From the IMG/VR virus record IMGVR_UViG_2609459856_000007, positions 28,436-92,435 of that record: 64,000 nt of DNA. One strand, 5' to 3'. This DNA comes from a virus (Duplodnaviria; Heunggongvirae; Uroviricota; Caudoviricetes). The notes under the pieces were generated by a model. The model saw only the letters and a list, made by a program, of their open reading frames with translations, ran no database searches and was not told the DNA's origin. Shown here piece after piece: positions 10,388 to 39,197 of this stretch. The first letter of the stretch is position 1; the number at the start of each line of letters is the position of its first letter. The position numbers and the translations under genes are program-made.

Positions 10388-13300
10388 ATGTGGTACAGGG
10401 AAGGTACTGTTACATTTACAAAAGGAAGCGACACAATATCAGGCATCGGAACACGTTGGAATTTGACCGAAAACGGCGTGTTACCGGGCATGATTGTCAT
10501 TGGTCCTGACAATAAGTTGTATGAGGTCAAGCGCGTAACCAGTGATACGGTCATTGTCCTCTCAGAACCTTATACCGGCGAAACTCAATCTAAAGTTCCG
10601 TGCCGAATCATTACGACCTATGAAGGCGACTTAACTCAGTTTAGTGCGCGCTTTACTGCACTAATGTCGCGTATGTCGGCTGATTCCAAGTCCATGCGCA
10701 GTTGGTTGACCGCTCTGGATGATGTGACAATCGAGCGTGAAGACGGTACAGAAGTGACCGTTAAGCCGCTAATGCAGATCGTCAACGAGCATAACGAAAA
10801 CGTTGAGTGGTATAAAAATAACACCGATGCGATTGAGGCCGCTGGAGACAAAGCTCGGGAGGCGGCGGCCAGTGCTGTCGCTGCGGCAGAAAGTGCCAAC
10901 ACTGCTGTAGAAAAAGCCTCTCAGGCATCTCAAAGTGCATCCGCTGCGGTATCTTCACAAAGTGCGGCGAGTGAGAGTGCAGCTGCTGCGGAAAAATCTG
11001 AAACAAACGCAGAAGCGGCAAAAGAAGCGGCAGCAGAATCAGCATCTGTGGCGTCGACTAAAGCATCGGAGGCAGCCACATCAGCGTCCAGTGCCTCTGC
11101 ATCTAAGGATGCGGCTAAATTATCAGAGACTAACGCTTCATCGAGTGCAAACGCGGCAGCATCATCAGCTACAGAAGCTGCAAATTCATGTAAGGCAGCA
11201 AAAGCATCAGAGACAAACGCAAAAGCGTCTGAAGCTGCTGCCGAACAGAGTGCATTGTCTGCAAACAGTTCGAAATCTGCGGCAGAAACGTCAGCGAGCG
11301 CGGCCTCAGTAAGCGCGGATAGTGCTTCATCAAGTGCAACGTCGGCAGAAAAGTCTGCGGAAAGCGCTTCGTTATCCGCGGCAAATGCCACCGCTAAAGC
11401 GACAGAGGCGACGAAACAGGCAACAGCTGCGGAAAAGTCAGCAGAGGCGGCAAAATCTTCTGAAACCAATGCAAAGACTTCAGAAGACAATGCCGCTGCT
11501 TCTAAGGAGACAGCAGCCGAATCTGCAAGCTCTGCCTCTGTTTCAGCTTCCTCGGCGTCATCTTCAAAAGATGAGGCCGCTCGCCAGGCGTCAGCGGCAG
11601 CAGAGAGTGCGACAACGGCATCAACGAAGGCGACGGAAGCGGCAGACAGTGCGACGGCGGCTGCGCAGAGCAAAAATGCGGCAGAATCCGCGGCAACACG
11701 CTCTGAGACAGCGGCAAAACGAGCTGAGGATATTGCATCCGCCGTGGCGCTTGAGGATGCAAGCACGACGAATAAGGGAATAGTACAACTTAGTAGCTCA
11801 ACTAATAGCGAATCGGAGTCATTTGCAGCCACCCCAAAAGCAGTAAAGACAGCATATGATCTTGCTAATGGCAAATACACTGCACAGGACGCCACCACGT
11901 CGCAAAAGGGGCTTGTTCAGCTTAACAGTGATACCAACAATAGCAGTGAAAGTTATGCGGCCACATCAAAGGCCGTGAAGGCCGCATACGACAATGCTGA
12001 AACACGCCTTCGGAAAGACCAGAATGGCGCGGATATACCTAGCAAAGACACCTTCGCAAAAAATATTGGCGCAGCGAAAGCTGCTGGCGGCAGTATCAGT
12101 ATTGGGGGAGACAGCAACAACTGGACGACGGCGCAATTTATTGAGTGGTTGGAGTCTCAGGGGGCATTCAATTATCCATACTGGATGTGCAAAGGCTCTT
12201 GGTCTTACGCTGCCAATAAAATCATCACGGATACCGGTTGTGGGAATATACAACTCGCTGGCGCTGTAGTTGAAGTTATGGGGGTTCGGGATGCTATGAC
12301 GATTCGCGTCACTACCCCCACGACGGCAACGAATGGCGGAACCGTCAAGGCTCAGTTTACCTACATCAACCACGGTGACTCTTATGCGCCAGGCTGGAGG
12401 CGCGACTTTAATCGAGCTGGCGATTCAATGTCAGGCCAATTGACTTTGGCGAATATGTCGCAGCCATTAAGATCACCTGGTGGTGGTATATTTGCCAATG
12501 ATGGCAACGTGTATATCAATAAACCGGGTTTCGCTGGATGGATTGATGCACTCTTTTTGAAATTAACCGGAGGAACTTTAACCGGGTCACTTGGATTTCA
12601 AAATTCAAACGGGAAAGTATTCAGGGTGCAGACTACTGAAACTCCGTCACTGAATACTTATATGCAGGTATGGGGAAATTCTTCAAGGCCAACGGTAATT
12701 GAATTCAAAGACGATCAAGGCTATCACTTTTACAGTCAGAGAAACACTGACAATACTATTACAATGAGTATAAATGGAGAGGTGGTTTCCGAAACAGCAA
12801 ATGCTTTCCGTGCAGTATATGGGAATTATGGCTTCTTCATTCGAAATGATGGGGCGAATACTTACTTTCTGTTGACAAATTCAGGTGATCAACATGGAAG
12901 TTGGGGACCTTTACGTCCACTATATATTAGCAATACAACAGGACGAGTGACACTTGGAAATGGCGTTGATATTAGTAATGGGGCAGTAATTAACGGTAGC
13001 GTCGGATTAGGGGTGTCGAATGCGCTTGGCGGAAACTCTATCGTATTAGGCGATAATGATACTGGCTTAAAACAGAATGGTGATGGCATTCTTGATGTTT
13101 ATGCAAATAATGCCCATGTTTTTCGGTTCACTAATGGCACGTTGCAAAGTCTTAAGCCGTTGAGTGTAACGGGGGATATCACGTCAAGTGCATGGGTTTA
13201 TGCCAACAGCTACTCTATCAACAGCGGTTCTGGCGCATGGATCGATATGCGGAGCCAGAACGTCATCTTCGGGAAGAATGCTGTAAGCACAAGCTCTGCA

Positions 13301-16717: not shown

Positions 16718-17485
16718 TTATGCCGCGCTAACACTATGTTCATTCCTAACCACCCCAACCTTCACAAAAGGGCTGCCGTAGCTTGGTGGCTTCTTGATTA
16801 ATTTGCCTACATACAGTTTTCTAATATGCTCATCGGCTATTCTGCCAACAAATTCATAACGTTTTGTGTCGGGGCCAAGAGCTATATCCCTTGTAAAGTA
16901 CTGCTGAGAACCGGCTTTGACCCAGCATTCAATCTGATAAACTTCCATTATCAGGCCCCCATATGTAGCGTAGGCATATTTGAGATTCTCGTCTCTTGGA
17001 ACCTTTGCCCATACGCCACGCGTAGCTTCATATAATGCCAGAGCGGACATTCCTGACTTGTAGGTGCTGTTTAGCAGGAAGGCAAGACCGGCGTGCTCAG
17101 GAGCAATTTCAGTTTCCTCTTGCAGCACTAAGTGATGGTAGGCGTCCAGTGATATTCTGCCCATCATGGAACCACTTCCTCGTACCTTATTCGTAAGCTC
17201 TCCGACCCCCATAAGGTCGATGCATGTCGCCTCAACAAGTTTGGCTGTGGTTTCATCCATACCATGACGAAGAATATCTATGCCTAATTTTTTATTAGCC
17301 AAAAGTTCTTTGATCCGCATGGATTTGGGAGAGTCATCGGGATACTTGATGTGATCGAGACAACGAGTCGATTTGCCTTTTCCTATGTAAAACGGTCTTT
17401 TCATCTTGTCTTCTGTATCATAGAGACAGTAAACATAGTATTTAGCCTTATCCAATGATTTCGCGTATACCGATAAATCGTCCAT
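16718..17485 (-). CDS. GIY-YIG nuclease domain protein
   Basis: N-terminal YYVYCLYD...PFYIGKGKSTR with downstream Glu/Asn; 255 aa, unknown C-terminal domain. Confidence 0.7.
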   Translation of the reverse strand: MDDLSVYAKSLDKAKYYVYCLYDTEDKMKRPFYIGKGKSTRCLDHIKYPDDSPKSMRIKELLANKKLGIDILRHGMDETTAKLVEATCIDLMGVGELTNKVRGSGSMMGRISLDAYHHLVLQEETEIAPEHAGLAFLLNSTYKSGMSALALYEATRGVWAKVPRDENLKYAYATYGGLIMEVYQIECWVKAGSQQYFTRDIALGPDTKRYEFVGRIADEHIRKLYVGKLIKKPPSYGSPFVKVGVVRNEHSVSAA

Positions 17486-23212: not shown

Positions 23213-23408
23213 ACGAGAGAAGGAAACCCTGCGTGAAATCAGCAAGTGGAAGGAGTTCTACGCCAACTGGAAGCCGAAGACCAGAGCCAAACTGGAGCGC
23301 ATGAATCTTGTCGCCAACGTTTCTCCAAAGGGATGTATTGAGAACTATCAACTGACTGAAAAAGGTTATTTGTTGTTGCAGCAATTGACTGAGGCGGGGG
23401 CATACTGA
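23196..23408 (+). CDS. hypothetical protein
   Basis: 70-aa ORF in coupled series. Confidence 0.35.
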   Translation: MIMLSKREKETLREISKWKEFYANWKPKTRAKLERMNLVANVSPKGCIENYQLTEKGYLLLQQLTEAGAY

Positions 23409-23560
23409 TGATTCCATACATCATTTTATCATTCACTGGTGGCGTGGGCCTCGGCCTCGCAATCTGCCGCGCCCTGGTCCAGCAGGAACTGAAAACCAAA
23501 ACACTTCGTGTCGGTAAGCGTGTGTATCGGGTTGTTCACGAGACGGGAGTGCGAAAATGA
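23408..23560 (+). CDS. small membrane protein (50 aa)
   Basis: ATGA overlaps on both sides; MIPYIILSFTGGVGLGLAICRAL. Confidence 0.3.
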   Translation: MIPYIILSFTGGVGLGLAICRALVQQELKTKTLRVGKRVYRVVHETGVRK

Positions 23561-23862
23561 GCAATTTGACTTCCTTCGACTGGTGGCTGGCAACCTACCT
23601 TGTTGCGGCCGGCTTCGGATTTGCCTTTTACGTTGGTCAGTTAATCGTAAAGCTACTGCTGATCAGATTCCCCAGCCATAAACGCATAGACGACGGTCTG
23701 TGGCGTCTGGGGTCCCTGTTAGAGACGCATTACGGCGAACTCAAGGAAAACGAAACTATCACTATTCAAGCGAAGCGTTTTACCGCCATCATCACGAGAA
23801 CTCCGGAACAAAAGGGGAGCCTGATCAAAAAGATAGCAACTAAACGCATTACAGATAGATAA
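23557..23862 (+). CDS. membrane protein
   Basis: TM WWLATYLVAAGFGFAFYVGQLIVKLLLI. Confidence 0.4.
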   Translation: MSNLTSFDWWLATYLVAAGFGFAFYVGQLIVKLLLIRFPSHKRIDDGLWRLGSLLETHYGELKENETITIQAKRFTAIITRTPEQKGSLIKKIATKRITDR

Positions 23863-23880
23863 GTATTTACTTACTTATCT
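23857..23880. promoter_or_regulatory. TAAGTA-n-TACTTA palindromic motif
   Basis: agataagtatttacttacttatct. Confidence 0.35.
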
Positions 23881-24605
23881 AATATGTATAAGATCACTTT
23901 GTTTTCGTTGAGATGCGACTGTTTGAACGTTAAATATAACTGCAAACGAAGATGCATACCTGGCAGTAGCCTAAGAAGCCAAACACCAGCGAGGTCAGTT
24001 TCCAGCCTCGTTACCAAAATGGGACACACTGAGCGAGTGTGATTGCAGAACGCAGAATAGGGCATATTGCACCATCCATGCCCTATTCAATGAAGTAACA
24101 GAATGGGCGGTTGGTTTCATCATTCCATTCATCCATCCCGGTTTCAGCTGACCGTCCATTCTGTTACGTCATTTCCATTACTTATGTCGTTTATACTTGG
24201 GTTAAAAGCGGCGACGTAACCCGGCTGACTTGGTTAGTCAGCACATAACGTTGAGATCACTGATTTTTCTTAAAATCATACAGGCGATTCCACATAGCTG
24301 TAGCGACTGATCAATATGTTGGGTTGAACATTAATCGGTTCAGTGATCTCAACGTTGTGAAAGCAGGATTAATTAACCCTCTAGTGAAAACATTGTTGCC
24401 TTTATTGCCCCTGGCTTCACAACATGTATGATTCCATACATCCAATAAGATCGAAGAATCTAACGGCAATCAACCACCGAGAAAGATTCCAGATCTTCGC
24501 TCATATGAGCGAGCCACATGCCTCGTCTGGTACTAACGTAAAGTGCAAGTTGCGGGAAAGTTTCTGGCTGCCTGGTTGTCCATAAGCTAGTACCGCCGCG
24601 AAAAT

Positions 24606-24680
24606 GATGGTGTAGCTCAGTGGTAGAGCGGTTGACTGTTAATCAACTGGTCGGTGGTTCGAGTCCACCCACCATCGCCA
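24606..24680 (+). tRNA. tRNA-Asn (anticodon GTT), CCA encoded
   Basis: Cloverleaf: acceptor GATGGTG/CACCATC, D-arm GCTC..GAGC, anticodon stem GTTGA/TCAAC with loop CTGTTAA, T-arm GGTGG-TTCGAGT-CCACC, discriminator G, CCA. Confidence 0.9.
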
Positions 24681-24684
24681 ACAT

Positions 24685-24759
24685 AGCGCTGAACGGTTTG
24701 GATTCGCCACCACCGTCCGAACGAAAGACTCCGCAAATGTCGCCAGACCGTTCAGCGCT
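24685..24759 (+). other. large imperfect hairpin immediately 3' of tRNA-Asn
   Basis: AGCGCTGAACGGT...ACCGTTCAGCGCT (13-bp perfect arms, about 49-nt loop). Confidence 0.4.
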
Positions 24760-24873
24760 GTGATAGACACGGCAGACGTTTTTTAACCATTGCTTCTAAG
24801 CATCGTAGCAACACTTTTTTCAGCGCAAAATCCAAAGGGGCTTCGGCCCCTTTTTGCTATCTTATCTCTTGGT

Positions 24874-25653
24874 AATATGGGAAACAAACGTAAACAGGCG
24901 CGTCGCGCAGTCCGACAGGCACTGAAGTCAAAGCCACGTATCCAGGACTACGAAATTGATACAATCATCGTTAACGAGCAGGCTGTACACCCTACTCTGC
25001 CACCCACCAAGCCTAAACGCGACAAATCCCCCATCGAAGCGCTTAACGAGGCCCAGGCTCACTATCTTATCTCCCTAGATACCAAAGCTCTGACTTTCGC
25101 CACTGGTGAAGCAGGTTGCGGTAAGACTTACCTGGCTGCCACCGTCGCTGCGCAGCGTCTGTTGGATAAGGAAGTCGAGAAGATCATCGTTACGCGTCCC
25201 GTATTGCAAGCAGAAGAAGATCTGGGCTTCCTTCCGGGTGACATGAGCGAGAAGTTCGCTCCGTTCTTTCGTCCCGTTTATGACGTGCTAAAGAAGCGTT
25301 TGGGTGGCTCATTCCTTGAATATTGCTTAAAGCCAGAGGTGGCCAAAGTAGAAATTGCTCCCTTCGCTTATATGCGTGGGCGCACGTTCGAGAACGCAGT
25401 AGTCATTCTTGATGAGGCGCAAAACGTTACAGCGTCACAAATGAAAATGTTCCTGACCCGTATGGACGAGAATGTTACCGTCATTGTGAACGGTGATATT
25501 ACTCAATGTGATCTGCCCGGTAACGTTAAGTCTGGTCTGGAAGATGCTCTGGCTCGTTTTAGACCTTCCGCCCATGTTGGCCTTGTTGAGTTTACGACCG
25601 AAGACTGCGTGCGATCAGAACTATGCAAAATCGCACTGGAAGCCTATCAGTAA
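24874..25653 (+). CDS. phoH: PhoH-family ATPase
   Basis: Walker A GEAGCGKT, Walker B-like VVILDEAQ; ORF track start 24790 is upstream of likely ATG 24874. Confidence 0.8.
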   Translation, partial: NMGNKRKQARRAVRQALKSKPRIQDYEIDTIIVNEQAVHPTLPPTKPKRDKSPIEALNEAQAHYLISLDTKALTFATGEAGCGKTYLAATVAAQRLLDKEVEKIIVTRPVLQAEEDLGFLPGDMSEKFAPFFRPVYDVLKKRLGGSFLEYCLKPEVAKVEIAPFAYMRGRTFENAVVILDEAQNVTASQMKMFLTRMDENVTVIVNGDITQCDLPGNVKSGLEDALARFRPSAHVGLVEFTTEDCVRSELCKIALEAYQ

Positions 25654-26802: not shown

Positions 26803-26837
26803 AAATGATTCCATACTTGTAAGGTATGGAATCATTT
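26803..26837. promoter_or_regulatory. perfect 14-bp inverted repeat with 7-bp spacer, candidate recombinase core site or operator
   Basis: AAATGATTCCATAC-ttgtaag-GTATGGAATCATTT, about 100 bp upstream of tyrosine recombinase gene. Confidence 0.45.
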
Positions 26838-26935: not shown

Positions 26936-28039
26936 ATGAAAAACACTTTTGATAAAGCACGCGCAGCAGAAAACACCTCTAGAGAAGCCATCGAGTATCT
27001 CGAACGCGCTTCCGGTTTGTCAGCAGTGTCGACCACCAATTTCGACGGTGACATGTCGTTTTCTTCCGCATTCATGTTATTCACTCGCTTATCTTTGCTG
27101 ATAACGAGACGTCGACCTGAAATAGCTGTTCATTGTATTTTGATACATGTAATGCCGCATATCTGTGAAGTAAAAGTAAGTGACATTAGTAGGGTTTTAG
27201 TCAACCAGCTGGTGAACCCATTAATACTTGAGGGCAAGATCGTCCAGGGCAGACGTGTGTTCTCGCTGATGAAGCAGTTTCTCAGTTGGTGTGCATTTCA
27301 GGGCTTAATTGATACATCCCCATTGAACGATATGTCGCTTAACAGAGTAGCCGGTGGCGCGAAGCCCACGCCGCGCGAGCGCAAACTGACCGACGCAGAG
27401 GTCTGGGTCTTTTGGAATGTATGGGACTACTTCAACGTATGTGAGGGTACAAAGTGGGCGGCCAGATTATGCCTTGTAGCGGCCAGACGACCAGATGAAG
27501 TGCTCCGAGCTAAAAGATCAGAATTCAACCTCGAATATAATTTATGGAATCAAGGAACGAGGAATAAATCGGCTCGCCAGCACTCGTTACCATTAAGCCC
27601 GCTAATGCGCAAATGTGTTGAGGAGCTGATCAAATACGGAAAAGGCAGCCAGTGGCTTGTTCCTTCAAACAAGAAACAGGGGGAGGATGTGCCAATGTCT
27701 AAGGTGGCCATATCACAGGCGTTGAGAAGGATTTTAGAACGTCCAGAGTTGATGGAGCTTGAGCCATTTACCCCCCGAGATTTGCGTCGTACTGCGCGTA
27801 GTTACTTCCCCGCGTTAGGCATAAGTCAGGAGGTATCCCGCAAAATTATGAACCATAGTCTTGAGGGGATAGATCGAGTATACGATCGGCACGATTATAT
27901 AGACGAGATGCGAGACGCCTTAAACAGTTTTTCGGCGTACATCGCATCAATCGTAGAGAAACAGGATTTAGAGGAGATAGATCATAAGTTCAAGGGAGAT
28001 CGACTCGCTACTGAGCTAATCCGTGTAAATTTCTCATAG
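26936..28039 (+). CDS. tyrosine recombinase / phage integrase family protein
   Basis: C-terminal catalytic region with conserved Arg, LRRTA box, MNHS and RVYDRHDY. Confidence 0.75.
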   Translation: MKNTFDKARAAENTSREAIEYLERASGLSAVSTTNFDGDMSFSSAFMLFTRLSLLITRRRPEIAVHCILIHVMPHICEVKVSDISRVLVNQLVNPLILEGKIVQGRRVFSLMKQFLSWCAFQGLIDTSPLNDMSLNRVAGGAKPTPRERKLTDAEVWVFWNVWDYFNVCEGTKWAARLCLVAARRPDEVLRAKRSEFNLEYNLWNQGTRNKSARQHSLPLSPLMRKCVEELIKYGKGSQWLVPSNKKQGEDVPMSKVAISQALRRILERPELMELEPFTPRDLRRTARSYFPALGISQEVSRKIMNHSLEGIDRVYDRHDYIDEMRDALNSFSAYIASIVEKQDLEEIDHKFKGDRLATELIRVNFS

Positions 28040-28423: not shown

Positions 28424-28455
28424 AATTATCAACCTGCGTGTTTTGATTTTATATG

Positions 28456-38612: not shown

Positions 38613-39197
38613 TCAAAATCCCCTGTTATCGTTTTGCATTTCTCTAATCCGGTTCAGAACTACTTCGTGCTGGATTTGGATAGCGGCTTTTTCGTTTTCA
38701 AGCCGGGAAATAGACATCTCTAATTCTTTGCTGTACCAGGCGAGCTGGGCCAGGTTCATCCGGTTGTGGTCGAGAGTTGGAGACACTTCGACGCGATCCC
38801 TTTCTTCCTGCTTTAATGAGAAGAGATTCATCTCATCCCTTGAGGAAAATTCAGCAACAATTTCTTGTTGATGATCCGGTCGCTGCGGCATCCTCGCCAG
38901 TATAAATGGCGGTTCTTTTGAAAACATGAATGTCGGTTCAGACCGTGTTTTTACCCAGCTTGCCTGCTGTCTTTCGGCAAGTTCACAGGCTTCATCATAG
39001 TTATCTGCCAAACAAAGCACGGATGGACGGTCCCACGCCCCACCATTCAGACAATAAACTACAATTTTCCCGTCAGGTTGTGTAACCCCATATGGATGGT
39101 CCCACCAGGCGTCCAGCTGAGCTTTAGAGCGTTTCTCGTTAGGAGTGCAGTCAAAATTTTTGGGCAATACAGGATCGAGAGGAATGCGATTAGGCAT
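38613..39197 (-). CDS. hypothetical protein, likely LexA-regulated
   Basis: Divergent from humD across LexA box. Confidence 0.5.
   Translation of the reverse strand: MPNRIPLDPVLPKNFDCTPNEKRSKAQLDAWWDHPYGVTQPDGKIVVYCLNGGAWDRPSVLCLADNYDEACELAERQQASWVKTRSEPTFMFSKEPPFILARMPQRPDHQQEIVAEFSSRDEMNLFSLKQEERDRVEVSPTLDHNRMNLAQLAWYSKELEMSISRLENEKAAIQIQHEVVLNRIREMQNDNRGF

Follow-up and report, generated by a model that had tools for sequence, protein, structure and literature searches.

This study concerns a stretch of 64,000 nucleotides (nt), hereafter the window, which comprises positions 28,436 to 92,435 of the IMG/VR virus record IMGVR_UViG_2609459856_000007 and belongs to an Escherichia coli phage-plasmid of the SSU5/pHCM2/pMT1 type. 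It was found that a 743-nt gap in the window (23863-24605), between the stop codon of a 101-aa membrane-protein open reading frame (ORF; 23557-23862) and a tRNA-Asn(GTT) gene (24606-24680), very probably holds a plus-strand gene for a structured RNA with a tag reading frame of the transfer-messenger RNA (tmRNA) type, a leader antisense to tmRNA, and no tRNA-like domain. Its sequence relates this RNA to tmRNA: it appears to consist of the template half plus an anti-tmRNA arm, and it is apparently undescribed. A sequence-only reading of this DNA had noted a gene-free, repeat-rich region upstream of the tRNA gene and had suggested a replication origin, an attachment or recombination region, or a structured noncoding RNA. 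The gap is real and carries no gene annotation in the database record of any relative, and the third suggestion receives strong support from covariation specific to one strand and from the conservation of both promoter and terminator. The tag frame and the antisense leader, which had been missed, are what defines the identity of the RNA.

How widely is this module distributed? The region is 91% identical to that of Salmonella phage SSU5 and matches 772 plasmid records from Klebsiella, Escherichia, Enterobacter, Yersinia, Salmonella, Citrobacter, and Cronobacter. It also matches 252 complete E. coli genomes, in every case on a plasmid. A sensitive search of phage genomes with positions 23897-24060 of the window as the query located the module in 417 of them, a spread among unrelated enterobacterial phages which suggests that bacterial ribosome rescue is open to interference by phages. 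In Felixounavirus and Suspvirus, it lies inside the tRNA cluster. In Vi01-like Ackermannviridae and in T1-like Klebsiella siphoviruses of about 46 kb, it occupies unannotated gaps. HK620, a temperate phage of the P22-like type, carries it in the interval from the late promoter pR'/qut to the terminator tR', within the short late leader transcript. A tRNA gene is found within 0.9 kb of the module in 129 of 205 cases. The HK620-type module is also present, unannotated, in chromosomal prophages of 147 of the 5,426 complete E. coli genomes (about 3%). The HK620 module (locus L187, 15873-15935 in record coordinates) falls in the counterpart of the lambda 6S late leader RNA. Given this position in the late leader, constitutive production from prophages is possible. 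Lambda-immP22 hybrid phages depend on tmRNA for growth, a requirement that may or may not have a bearing on the HK620 module.

The earlier statement that the gap has no credible ORF holds for conventional genes, but not for a conserved start-less frame of ten codons. This frame (GCA AAC GAA GAT GCA TAC CTG GCA GTA GCC TAA; 23942-23974, + strand) encodes ANEDAYLAVA followed by a stop and has no start codon, and it may be compared with the E. coli tmRNA tag ANDENYALAA. By my own estimate, the probability of finding such a frame in the window by chance is about 1e-6. The frame is intact in 175 SSU5-type copies except for one with a premature stop; one further copy only seems broken, because a 1-nt indel 3' of the tag shifts the motif-anchored read-out. 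Among the SSU5-type copies, four sites vary within the Y-L-A-V-A codons, each of them a third position with synonymous changes only (chance, about 5/1365), and amino-acid changes are confined to codons 3-5. In all families together (294 copies, 205 of them unique), the tag is always ten codons long and conforms to AN[DE]xx[YF]LAVA, with 15 variants. Across families, the amino-acid variation falls at codons 3-5, plus a Y/F alternation at codon 6. The last Ala codon may be GCC, GCT, GCG, or GCA, and the stop codon is TAA (184), TGA (18), or TAG (2). As judged from this pattern of substitutions, the tag frame is under protein-level selection, and this coding signature implies that it is translated.

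The codon-level conservation would also suit a conventional gene for a small protein, namely a peptide of 10-16 aa ending in YLAVA. This is highly improbable. Most clades have no in-frame ATG, GTG, or TTG, a Shine-Dalgarno sequence is lacking, the window has a TGA in frame six codons before the tag, and relatives differ by indels of 1-2 nt immediately before the GCA codon.

The sequence just 5' of the resume codon also resembles tmRNA. An A/U-rich spacer, predicted to be single-stranded (23925-23941, + strand), ends in AUAACU and is noncoding, as 1-2 nt indels at 23929-31 show. Positions -6 and -4 are A in all 205 unique modules, and position -5 is U or C. In 203 of the 205, positions -6 to -1 read A[U/C]AA[A/C/G]U, and the other two end in A at -1. 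The corresponding stretch of E. coli tmRNA is AUAGUC, which shares the A residues at -6 and -4. In tmRNA, these upstream determinants (A84 U85 A86 in E. coli, positions -6 to -4) set the reading frame. When a covariance-model search was run, the Rfam tmRNA models did align to the window, but solely to the tag segment and below their gathering scores: beta_tmRNA gave 16.5 bits (gathering score 84) and tmRNA_permuted gave 19.7 bits (gathering score 47). The tmRNA-model scores for the Felix-type homologue of phage EC6 (32.4 and 16.0 bits) were also below the gathering scores. In one locus (L246), ARAGORN recognises the resume consensus and the tag.

The 5' leader of the RNA (23901-23924, + strand) is antisense to the host tmRNA in two blocks, with a variable internal loop of 3-4 nt between them. 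Block 1, GUUUUCGUUG (23901-10), complements E. coli tmRNA nt 95-104, and block 2, UGCGACUGUUU (23914-24), complements nt 82-92, including the resume codon G90. The target would extend from 8 nt before the resume codon through tag codon 5. The first 25 nt of the predicted transcript are near-invariant, and the sequence variation among 113 copies is concentrated in the predicted internal loop. The duplex of the window leader with tmRNA has 21 bp and about -28 kcal/mol (RNAduplex), and the best site on the whole E. coli ssrA RNA is nt 75-105. None of 1000 shuffled leaders matched this energy against the AU-rich template region (nt 79-125).

The other families give a stronger signal. When the leaders of six phage families were each matched to full-length E. 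coli ssrA, the best duplex began at nt 54-82 and ended at nt 104-105, with -28 to -55 kcal/mol, and the leader of every family is collinear with the tmRNA as its reverse complement. The leaders of Vi01, ZX4, and HK620 are collinear complements back to nt 54, through the 3' half of pseudoknot 1 (PK1), with -43 to -55 kcal/mol, and for these three at most 1 in 100 shuffles matched the observed energy on the whole tmRNA. Against the mRNA-like domain (MLD), none of 500-1000 shuffles matched the leader of any family. The Smith-Waterman scores for the antisense comparison have a median of 33; shuffles have a mean of 17.4 (maximum 29), and the sense strand has a median of 16. With its own tag region, the leader pairs far more weakly (-12 to -24 kcal/mol; -12 in the window). 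The block GUUUUCGU complements host codons 3-5 (ACGAAAAC) and is conserved even where codons 3-5 of the phage tags vary. Leaders complementary to the host tmRNA are retained between families with about 25% divergence in other parts. Outside the leader, complementarity of the window RNA to tmRNA is no better than in shuffles. The comparison of families shows that complementarity of the leaders to the host tmRNA is conserved at the sequence level, and the two RNAs may pair in vivo.

The remainder of the RNA is highly structured. The fold of 23897-24425 has a z score of -6.7 for the + strand and -4.6 for the - strand. For covariation, 26 diverse SSU5-type copies were aligned, and pairs were counted on a structure that I had specified. 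Standard pairs occupy 97.7% of the cells, as compared with 33-48% in controls in which the partners were displaced by 1-3 columns. Changes on both sides were seen for 19 pairs, as compared with 1-6 in these controls, and none of 500 shuffles matched the observed value. G.U pairs fill 334 cells and A.C only 20, and the structure is 97.7% paired when read as the + strand but 85.7% when read as the - strand. Since G.U is kept and A.C is avoided, the helices act as + strand RNA and not as DNA.

The inverted repeats listed in the sequence-only reading are, on this evidence, hairpins d, e, and h of one structured RNA, and they are conserved in relatives with compensatory changes. All three exist, although their descriptions needed correction. 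The first, given as 24054-24085, is a perfect 11-bp repeat at 24055-65/24078-88. The second is a 23-nt repeat at 24089-24111/24151-24173 with 91% identity, whose 12-mers lie at 24095-24106/24155-24166 and do not begin at 24100. The supposed 17-bp repeat, listed as two identical copies, is inverted, the second copy being the reverse complement of the first, and its full arms are 20 nt long (24244-63/24340-59).

The same data bear on the suggestion of a DNA-level replication origin with Dam sites and cruciform-forming repeats. The several inverted repeats and five or six GATC sites of the region would fit such an origin, as would a GC content of 0.42-0.44, slightly below that of the flanks, and the replication genes in the neighbourhood. 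The preference for G.U over A.C (334:20), by contrast, points to RNA helices of one strand. Direct repeats are at chance level, with no iterons and no direct repeats of the DnaA-box type, and neither an AT-rich unwinding element nor a skew switch is present. In the complete relative, RepA lies about 18 kb away. The GATC sites of the 17-bp arms, which had been pointed out as a feature, are kept in only 6 of 85 copies. The same core is also present in phages with unrelated replication systems. An origin is therefore very improbable, and a structured RNA is retained as the explanation of the repeats.

The core shared by all phage families comprises the leader, the A-rich spacer, the tag frame, a stop-codon hairpin, hairpin a with a candidate pseudoknot, and hairpin b. 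The stop-codon hairpin (UGGC/GCCA; 23961-23981, + strand) has the stop codon in its loop, analogous to helix 5 of tmRNA; in 153 sequences, 100% of its cells are paired, with one pair alternating between GC and GU. Hairpin a (23989-95/24005-11, + strand) follows, and its loop (24000-04) may pair with 24020-24 to form a pseudoknot. Across families, the pairs of hairpin a were taken by alignment-free extraction, as MAFFT pair counts were distorted by shifts in loop length. Its stem reads CGAGG/CCUCG, UGAGG/CCUCA, CAAGG/CCUUG, or CAGGG/CCCUG, all four fully complementary, and the pairing of the loop with the downstream segment covaries in other families (CCAA/UUGG, CCGA/UCGG, CCAG/CUGG). In these non-SSU5 families, the putative pseudoknot would occupy the position of PK2 of tmRNA. 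The SSU5-type pairing UUCCA/UGGGA is only a candidate. Hairpin b (CACACU/AGUGUG; 24025-24041, + strand) is the last core element common to all families. Two of its pairs show double compensatory changes (CG/UA/GC), and 100% of its cells are paired in the 153 sequences.

The SSU5-type RNA continues with a 380-nt 3' extension that other families do not have (24044-24423, + strand), made up of the successive hairpins c (24044-54), d (24055-88), e (24089-24173), f (24182-24219), g (24224-42), h (24244-24359), and i (24354/60-24417/23). Hairpin f has a weak pseudoknot (24198-201/24220-23). Doubly changed pairs number 6 in d, 2 in e, 1 in g, 5 in h, and 5 in i. A long-range closing helix (23916-20/24393-97) was considered and rejected, as only one-sided changes were found. 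Three natural variants were also seen. In L060, hairpin h is cleanly deleted via its palindromic CAACGTTG; L095 has a 256-bp insertion resembling a miniature inverted-repeat transposable element (MITE), with a duplicated TTGCAG, in hairpin c (equivalent to window position 24049); and in L088 the RNA is interrupted at about 24205. As a deletion, a MITE-like insertion, and an interruption, respectively, these do not represent separate RNA types.

Does the RNA have the other half of a tmRNA? Neither the window nor any of 88 SSU5-type copies yielded a tmRNA with ARAGORN, and the same was true of the complete relative pTB212 and of five other families. A tRNA-like domain (acceptor stem, G3.U70, T-arm, CCA) was not found by ARAGORN, by Rfam at relaxed E-values, or by a permissive manual scan; the permissive T-arm scan of the window found only the tRNA-Asn. 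The alignments to the Rfam tmRNA models delete the acceptor columns. PK1 was not found upstream of the template, where the 45-60 nt consist of the antisense leader with weak local hairpins only. A separate acceptor piece, as in two-piece tmRNAs, was not detected upstream by cmscan or by ARAGORN, including its permuted mode; the region 5' of the promoter is the conserved membrane-protein ORF. No smpB gene is annotated on pTB212 (complete, 110 kb), and none was found next to any module. As it has no tRNA-like domain, the RNA is not a tmRNA by the defining feature.

Several candidates for the missing half were examined and rejected. Two tmRNA calls by ARAGORN among the 205 loci were artefacts assembled from neighbouring tRNA genes, and an apparent T-arm upstream of the Felix-type module belongs to a normal tRNA-Ile. 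The tRNA-Asn was considered as a stand-in for the tRNA-like domain. It was rejected because its pair 3-70 is U3-A70, because pMT1 and the HK620, ZX4, and Vi01 contexts do not have it, and because a tRNA extended at its 5' end could not fit the ribosomal A site. The motif UGGAUUCGCC in the loop of the hairpin after the tRNA was dropped as a tmRNA D-loop motif, because it is not conserved in other clades. A recent capture of the host ssrA gene was rejected, as no homology extends beyond GCAAACGA. In EC6 (locus L184), a tRNA-like gene lies directly after the module (1702-1780). It has a UCU anticodon loop, a D-arm that is nearly absent, 20 inserted nt in the variable region, G3.U70, A73, and an encoded CCA, the last three being alanine-identity features. 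It was not called by ARAGORN and scores 31 bits with the Rfam tRNA model. Since its exact 3' half occurs with only 9 of the 205 unique modules, the tag RNA does not generally have it as a partner.

It is worth comparing the phage RNA with known systems. Like tmRNA (SsrA; RF00023, clan CL00001), it has a start-less ten-codon frame opening with GCA(Ala)-AAC(Asn) and conforming to AN[DE]..[YF]....A-stop, an A-rich stretch upstream, and a hairpin loop that holds the stop codon, directly followed by a pseudoknot and more hairpins. Unlike tmRNA, it has neither the tRNA-like domain nor PK1, it has its own promoter 40-50 nt upstream of the resume codon, and its 5' part is antisense to tmRNA instead of homologous. 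Its tag ends in LAVA, and that of E. coli in ALAA; it is up to twice as long; and it is borne by phages and plasmids, the only sequence shared with E. coli ssrA being the short segment mentioned above. As far as sequence and predicted structure go, it matches the mRNA-like half of tmRNA without the tRNA-like half.

The two-piece permuted tmRNAs of alpha- and beta-proteobacteria and cyanobacteria (RF01849-51, RF04321) also have a template apart from the 3' acceptor/T-arm piece, the two being joined by base pairing, and RF04321 is the best sub-threshold Rfam match (19.7 bits for the window, 32 bits for EC6). In contrast to the phage RNA, their pieces come from one gene, and the coding piece keeps the 5' acceptor strand, with covalent continuity from the tRNA-like domain to the template. 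The phage RNA has no acceptor strand, and its proposed partner is a complete host tmRNA.

Phage genes derived from or aimed at trans-translation have been reported before. An exhaustive ssrA survey of RefSeq plasmids and viruses found tmRNA only in some mycobacteriophages (the Bxz1 group) and Bacillus phage G, and a tRNA-like-domain-only RNA in mycobacteriophage DS6A (Hudson, Lau and Williams 2014, PMC4131195). The survey reported nothing in the phage families carrying the present module (PMC4131195). DS6A thus provides a phage with half a tmRNA. The phage genes of that survey are complete or represent the tRNA-like half, whereas the present module represents the opposite half, the template only, plus an antisense arm.

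Prophages of E. coli O157 encode the anti-small RNAs (anti-sRNAs) or RNA sponges AgvB and AsxR. The likeness is a phage transcript that base-pairs with a host regulatory or housekeeping RNA, as is proposed for the module. The difference is that the target of the module would be tmRNA and that the module brings its own replacement coding template. I know of no example of such a dual design. Rfam 15 has no family for the RNA, PGAP annotates nothing there, and literature searches for the tag peptides, phage tmRNA mimics, anti-tmRNA RNAs, or tmRNA in these phage groups turned up nothing relevant.

How could the tag frame be read? Since the RNA has no start codon and cannot be aminoacylated, translation of the tag is plausible only by trans-translation with a tRNA-like domain supplied in trans. 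In the model proposed here, the leader would anneal to the host tmRNA (nt 82-104 for the window, nt 54-105 for other families), and the duplex would bury the host resume codon and the first tag codons. The strands being antiparallel, the A-rich spacer of 9-17 nt and the GCA codon of the phage RNA would emerge beside PK1, the usual start of the host template. The alanyl-tmRNA, together with SmpB, would still rescue stalled ribosomes, but would append ...[YF]LAVA instead of ...YALAA, which is the ClpXP degron. It is known that ClpX reads the last three residues of the ssrA tag (LAA) and that SspB binds AAND..Y. The phage tag would retain the part bound by SspB and alter the C-terminus read by ClpX. 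With that part altered, rescued proteins might escape or jam degradation, to the benefit of the phage. That the frame serves trans-translation and that tagged proteins meet such a fate are what I infer from these features.

Thus stated, the proposal is that enterobacterial phages of at least six unrelated lineages, as well as the pHCM2/pMT1/SSU5 phage-plasmids, encode a template-swap RNA that silences the host tag template. I offer it tentatively, at slightly less than an even chance, and the whole statement, namely a widespread phage RNA family including the template swap on the host tmRNA, is held with the same reserve. Template replacement is favoured because it is the simplest model that uses all of the features: a selected frame, the lack of a start codon, a Shine-Dalgarno sequence, and a tRNA-like domain, and an adjacent anti-tmRNA arm. 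The roles of the 3' extension, of the ATGATTCCATAC box, and of the hairpin after the tRNA are not explained by the model, though these are parts of the same unit.

Alternatively, the RNA may be a pure antisense inhibitor or sponge of the host tmRNA, which would block the resume codon or lead to RNase III cleavage and so turn tagging off, with the frame unused. The complementarity of the leader to tmRNA serves this explanation equally well. Trans-translation is inhibited by antisense oligonucleotides against the template region of tmRNA, and E. coli O157 provides known examples of anti-sRNAs from prophages. What an inhibitor leaves unexplained is the protein-level selection on the tag, its exact length of ten codons, the use of three different stop codons, the conserved A residues at -6 and -4, and the tmRNA-like hairpin and pseudoknot after the stop. 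I consider it unlikely, though worth keeping in view.

It is also conceivable that the RNA is a tmRNA-derived stable relic that acts alone, for example as a processed spacer or scaffold of a tRNA or late operon or as a protein-binding RNA, the antisense arm being a remnant of an inverted duplication and pairing in cis. The prevalence of the module in tRNA clusters or in a late leader transcript (see the count above) agrees with this, and the leader is able to form small local hairpins. The tRNA cluster of phage T4 also encodes stable RNAs of unknown function, species 1 and 2, which are co-transcribed with the phage tRNAs and released by tRNA processing. I know of no tag frame in these RNAs. 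The leader, however, fits the host tmRNA far better than its own downstream sequence, and this complementarity to the host is kept across the divergent families with their differing tag codons. The coding signature of the tag also implies translation. A relic acting alone is quite unlikely. Both the inhibitor and the relic are disfavoured because neither accounts for the coding signature together with the host-matched leader.

Several points weigh against template replacement itself. In natural tmRNAs, the two-piece forms included, the link between the tRNA-like domain and the template is always covalent, and no precedent is known for a template that is held by an intermolecular duplex alone. 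In most families, the leader duplex would unfold PK1. In HK620, where about 220 nt of the pR' transcript precede the module, the RNA would need processing at its 5' end. An inverted duplication of a captured ssrA segment could have left the antisense arm behind as a relic. The energy of the window leader is matched at some site of the GC-rich tmRNA by 8-13% of shuffles (27% for a 60-nt leader), and the SSU5-type leader is the weakest among the families. As so many shuffles match it on the whole tmRNA, the window leader alone would be only suggestive. All leader complementarity was computed against E. coli ssrA only. No expression, interaction, or biochemical evidence was found for the RNA. A Y. 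pestis small RNA (sRNA) catalogue lists nothing at the locus, though the pMT1 copy is truncated; sR082 and sR083 of Y. pestis sRNA-seq map elsewhere on pMT1, and no expression evidence was found for the pHCM2 copy.

If template replacement were confirmed, it would be categorically new: the first bimolecular tmRNA joined from host and parasite RNAs and the first virus that reprograms trans-translation. It would provide a natural tool to re-tag rescued proteins, and it would raise the question of what a phage gains from a changed fate of truncated proteins, e.g., in abortive infection or upon mRNA cleavage by toxins. Even if the RNA is only inhibitory, it would still be a new large RNA family missed by ARAGORN, Rfam, and PGAP. 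Nearly all bacteria have the tmRNA-SmpB system, which is a drug target and influences the growth of several phages. No description of a phage countermeasure aimed at the tmRNA template was found in the literature. The module is unannotated in much-studied genomes, namely therapeutic phages of the Felix O1-like and Vi01-like groups, HK620-type prophages, S. Typhi pHCM2-type elements, and Y. pestis pMT1, in which it adjoins the F1 capsule locus.

In the window, positions 23866-24861 form a single + strand transcription unit consisting of a promoter, the structured RNA (about 530-700 nt), the tRNA-Asn gene, a conserved hairpin, and a terminator. The start of transcription and the ends of the RNA are predicted positions. 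The sigma-70-type promoter (+ strand) has a -35 hexamer TTTACT (23866-71), a 17-nt spacer, and a -10 hexamer TAAGAT (23889-94), with a predicted start at about 23900. Its hexamers are conserved in all SSU5-type clades, and the spacer is fixed in length and variable in sequence. An automated scan missed it because it matches the consensus at only 8 of 12 positions. The EC6 homologue has a near-consensus promoter (TTGACA-17-TATAGT) at the same relative position, which places the 5' end at GUUUUCGU as in the window.

A less conserved spacer (24443-24605, + strand) in three clade-specific versions, with a conserved small hairpin (24527-24548), separates the structured part from the tRNA-Asn(GUU) gene. 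This gene (+ strand; ARAGORN and Rfam, 76 bits) is the first and, in the window, the only member of a co-oriented tRNA array that reads Asn-(Tyr)-(Thr)-Ser in relatives. By clade, the array is Asn only, Asn-Ser, Asn-Thr-Ser, or Asn-Tyr-Thr-Ser, and a Klebsiella plasmid (L015) has Ser only. The hairpin after the tRNA, which had been described with 13-bp arms, is present with arms of 20 nt (24682-24701/24743-24762, + strand; 20 bp including two G.U). It begins 1-2 nt past the CCA of the last tRNA, carries a conserved AAGACUCCGC in its loop, and follows the last tRNA in every clade, with two compensatory pairs (C-G to U-A and A-U to G-C). SSU5 itself has lost the 3' arm. This hairpin may be a processing site. 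The unit ends with an intrinsic terminator, GGGGCUUCGGCCCC followed by a U-run (24833-24861, + strand), which was found by a terminator scan and is invariant across clades. Homology between relatives stops just 3' of it.

A 15-nt box, ATGATTCCATACATC (24428-24442, + strand), overlaps a promoter-like -10 element (TTGCCC-16-TATGAT, 24405-24432) and is invariant in all SSU5-type clades. The 15-mer had been noticed before, and a further copy is present at 23408. There, ATGATTCCATAC(ATC) (23408-23422) supplies codons 1-5, the start codon included, of a conserved ORF of 50 aa (MIPYI...) in all clades. Two more copies form a perfect palindrome at 26803-26837 (AAATGATTCCATAC-7 nt-GTATGGAATCATTT). Each element has 4-5 copies of ATGATTCCATAC(ATC), as compared with 0.3 expected by chance; those of pTB212 (locus L115) include copies at 11136 and 17312-17342. 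Judging from these contexts, the box may be a recombinase site, a regulator site, or an RNA-level motif.

The box also gives reason to consider an attachment or recombination region linked to the tRNA gene and the nearby tyrosine recombinase. The recombinase gene (26936-28039) lies 2.3 kb downstream of the tRNA and has its own palindromic site, and the box at 24428 equals each arm of this palindrome, about 100 nt upstream of the gene. The cargo downstream of the unit is variable, the homology of L015 ends exactly at the box, and the caf locus of pMT1 begins at about 24380. On the other hand, the 25-nt 3' end of the tRNA is unique in the window, even with 3 mismatches allowed. The variable region begins after the terminator and not within the structured RNA, the box makes up 15 of about 740 nt, and the covarying helices are features of RNA. 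An attachment region is improbable as an account of the structured region, where the tRNA 3' end is not duplicated; what survives of that suggestion is the 15-mer as a half-site of the palindrome near the recombinase gene.

Directly after the conserved terminator, a cargo hotspot extends from 24862 to about 26900. The cargo consists of PhoH and small ORFs in the window, of a YafO toxin-antitoxin pair in pTB212, and of a chaperone-usher fimbrial locus in Cronobacter. In Y. pestis pMT1, all of the sequence 3' of about 24380 has given way to the F1 capsule operon (caf1R-caf1M-caf1A), so that the RNA is truncated and the tRNAs are gone. Within the hotspot of the window, positions 25455-25650 (- strand), antisense to the 3' part of the phoH-like gene, give a sub-threshold Rfam match to the Yersinia sRNA Ysr251 (54 bits, gathering score 100). 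A full-length Rfam match to IS009 RNA (190 bits) is present in pTB212 at 38877-39075 (- strand), within the region for tail-fibre assembly.

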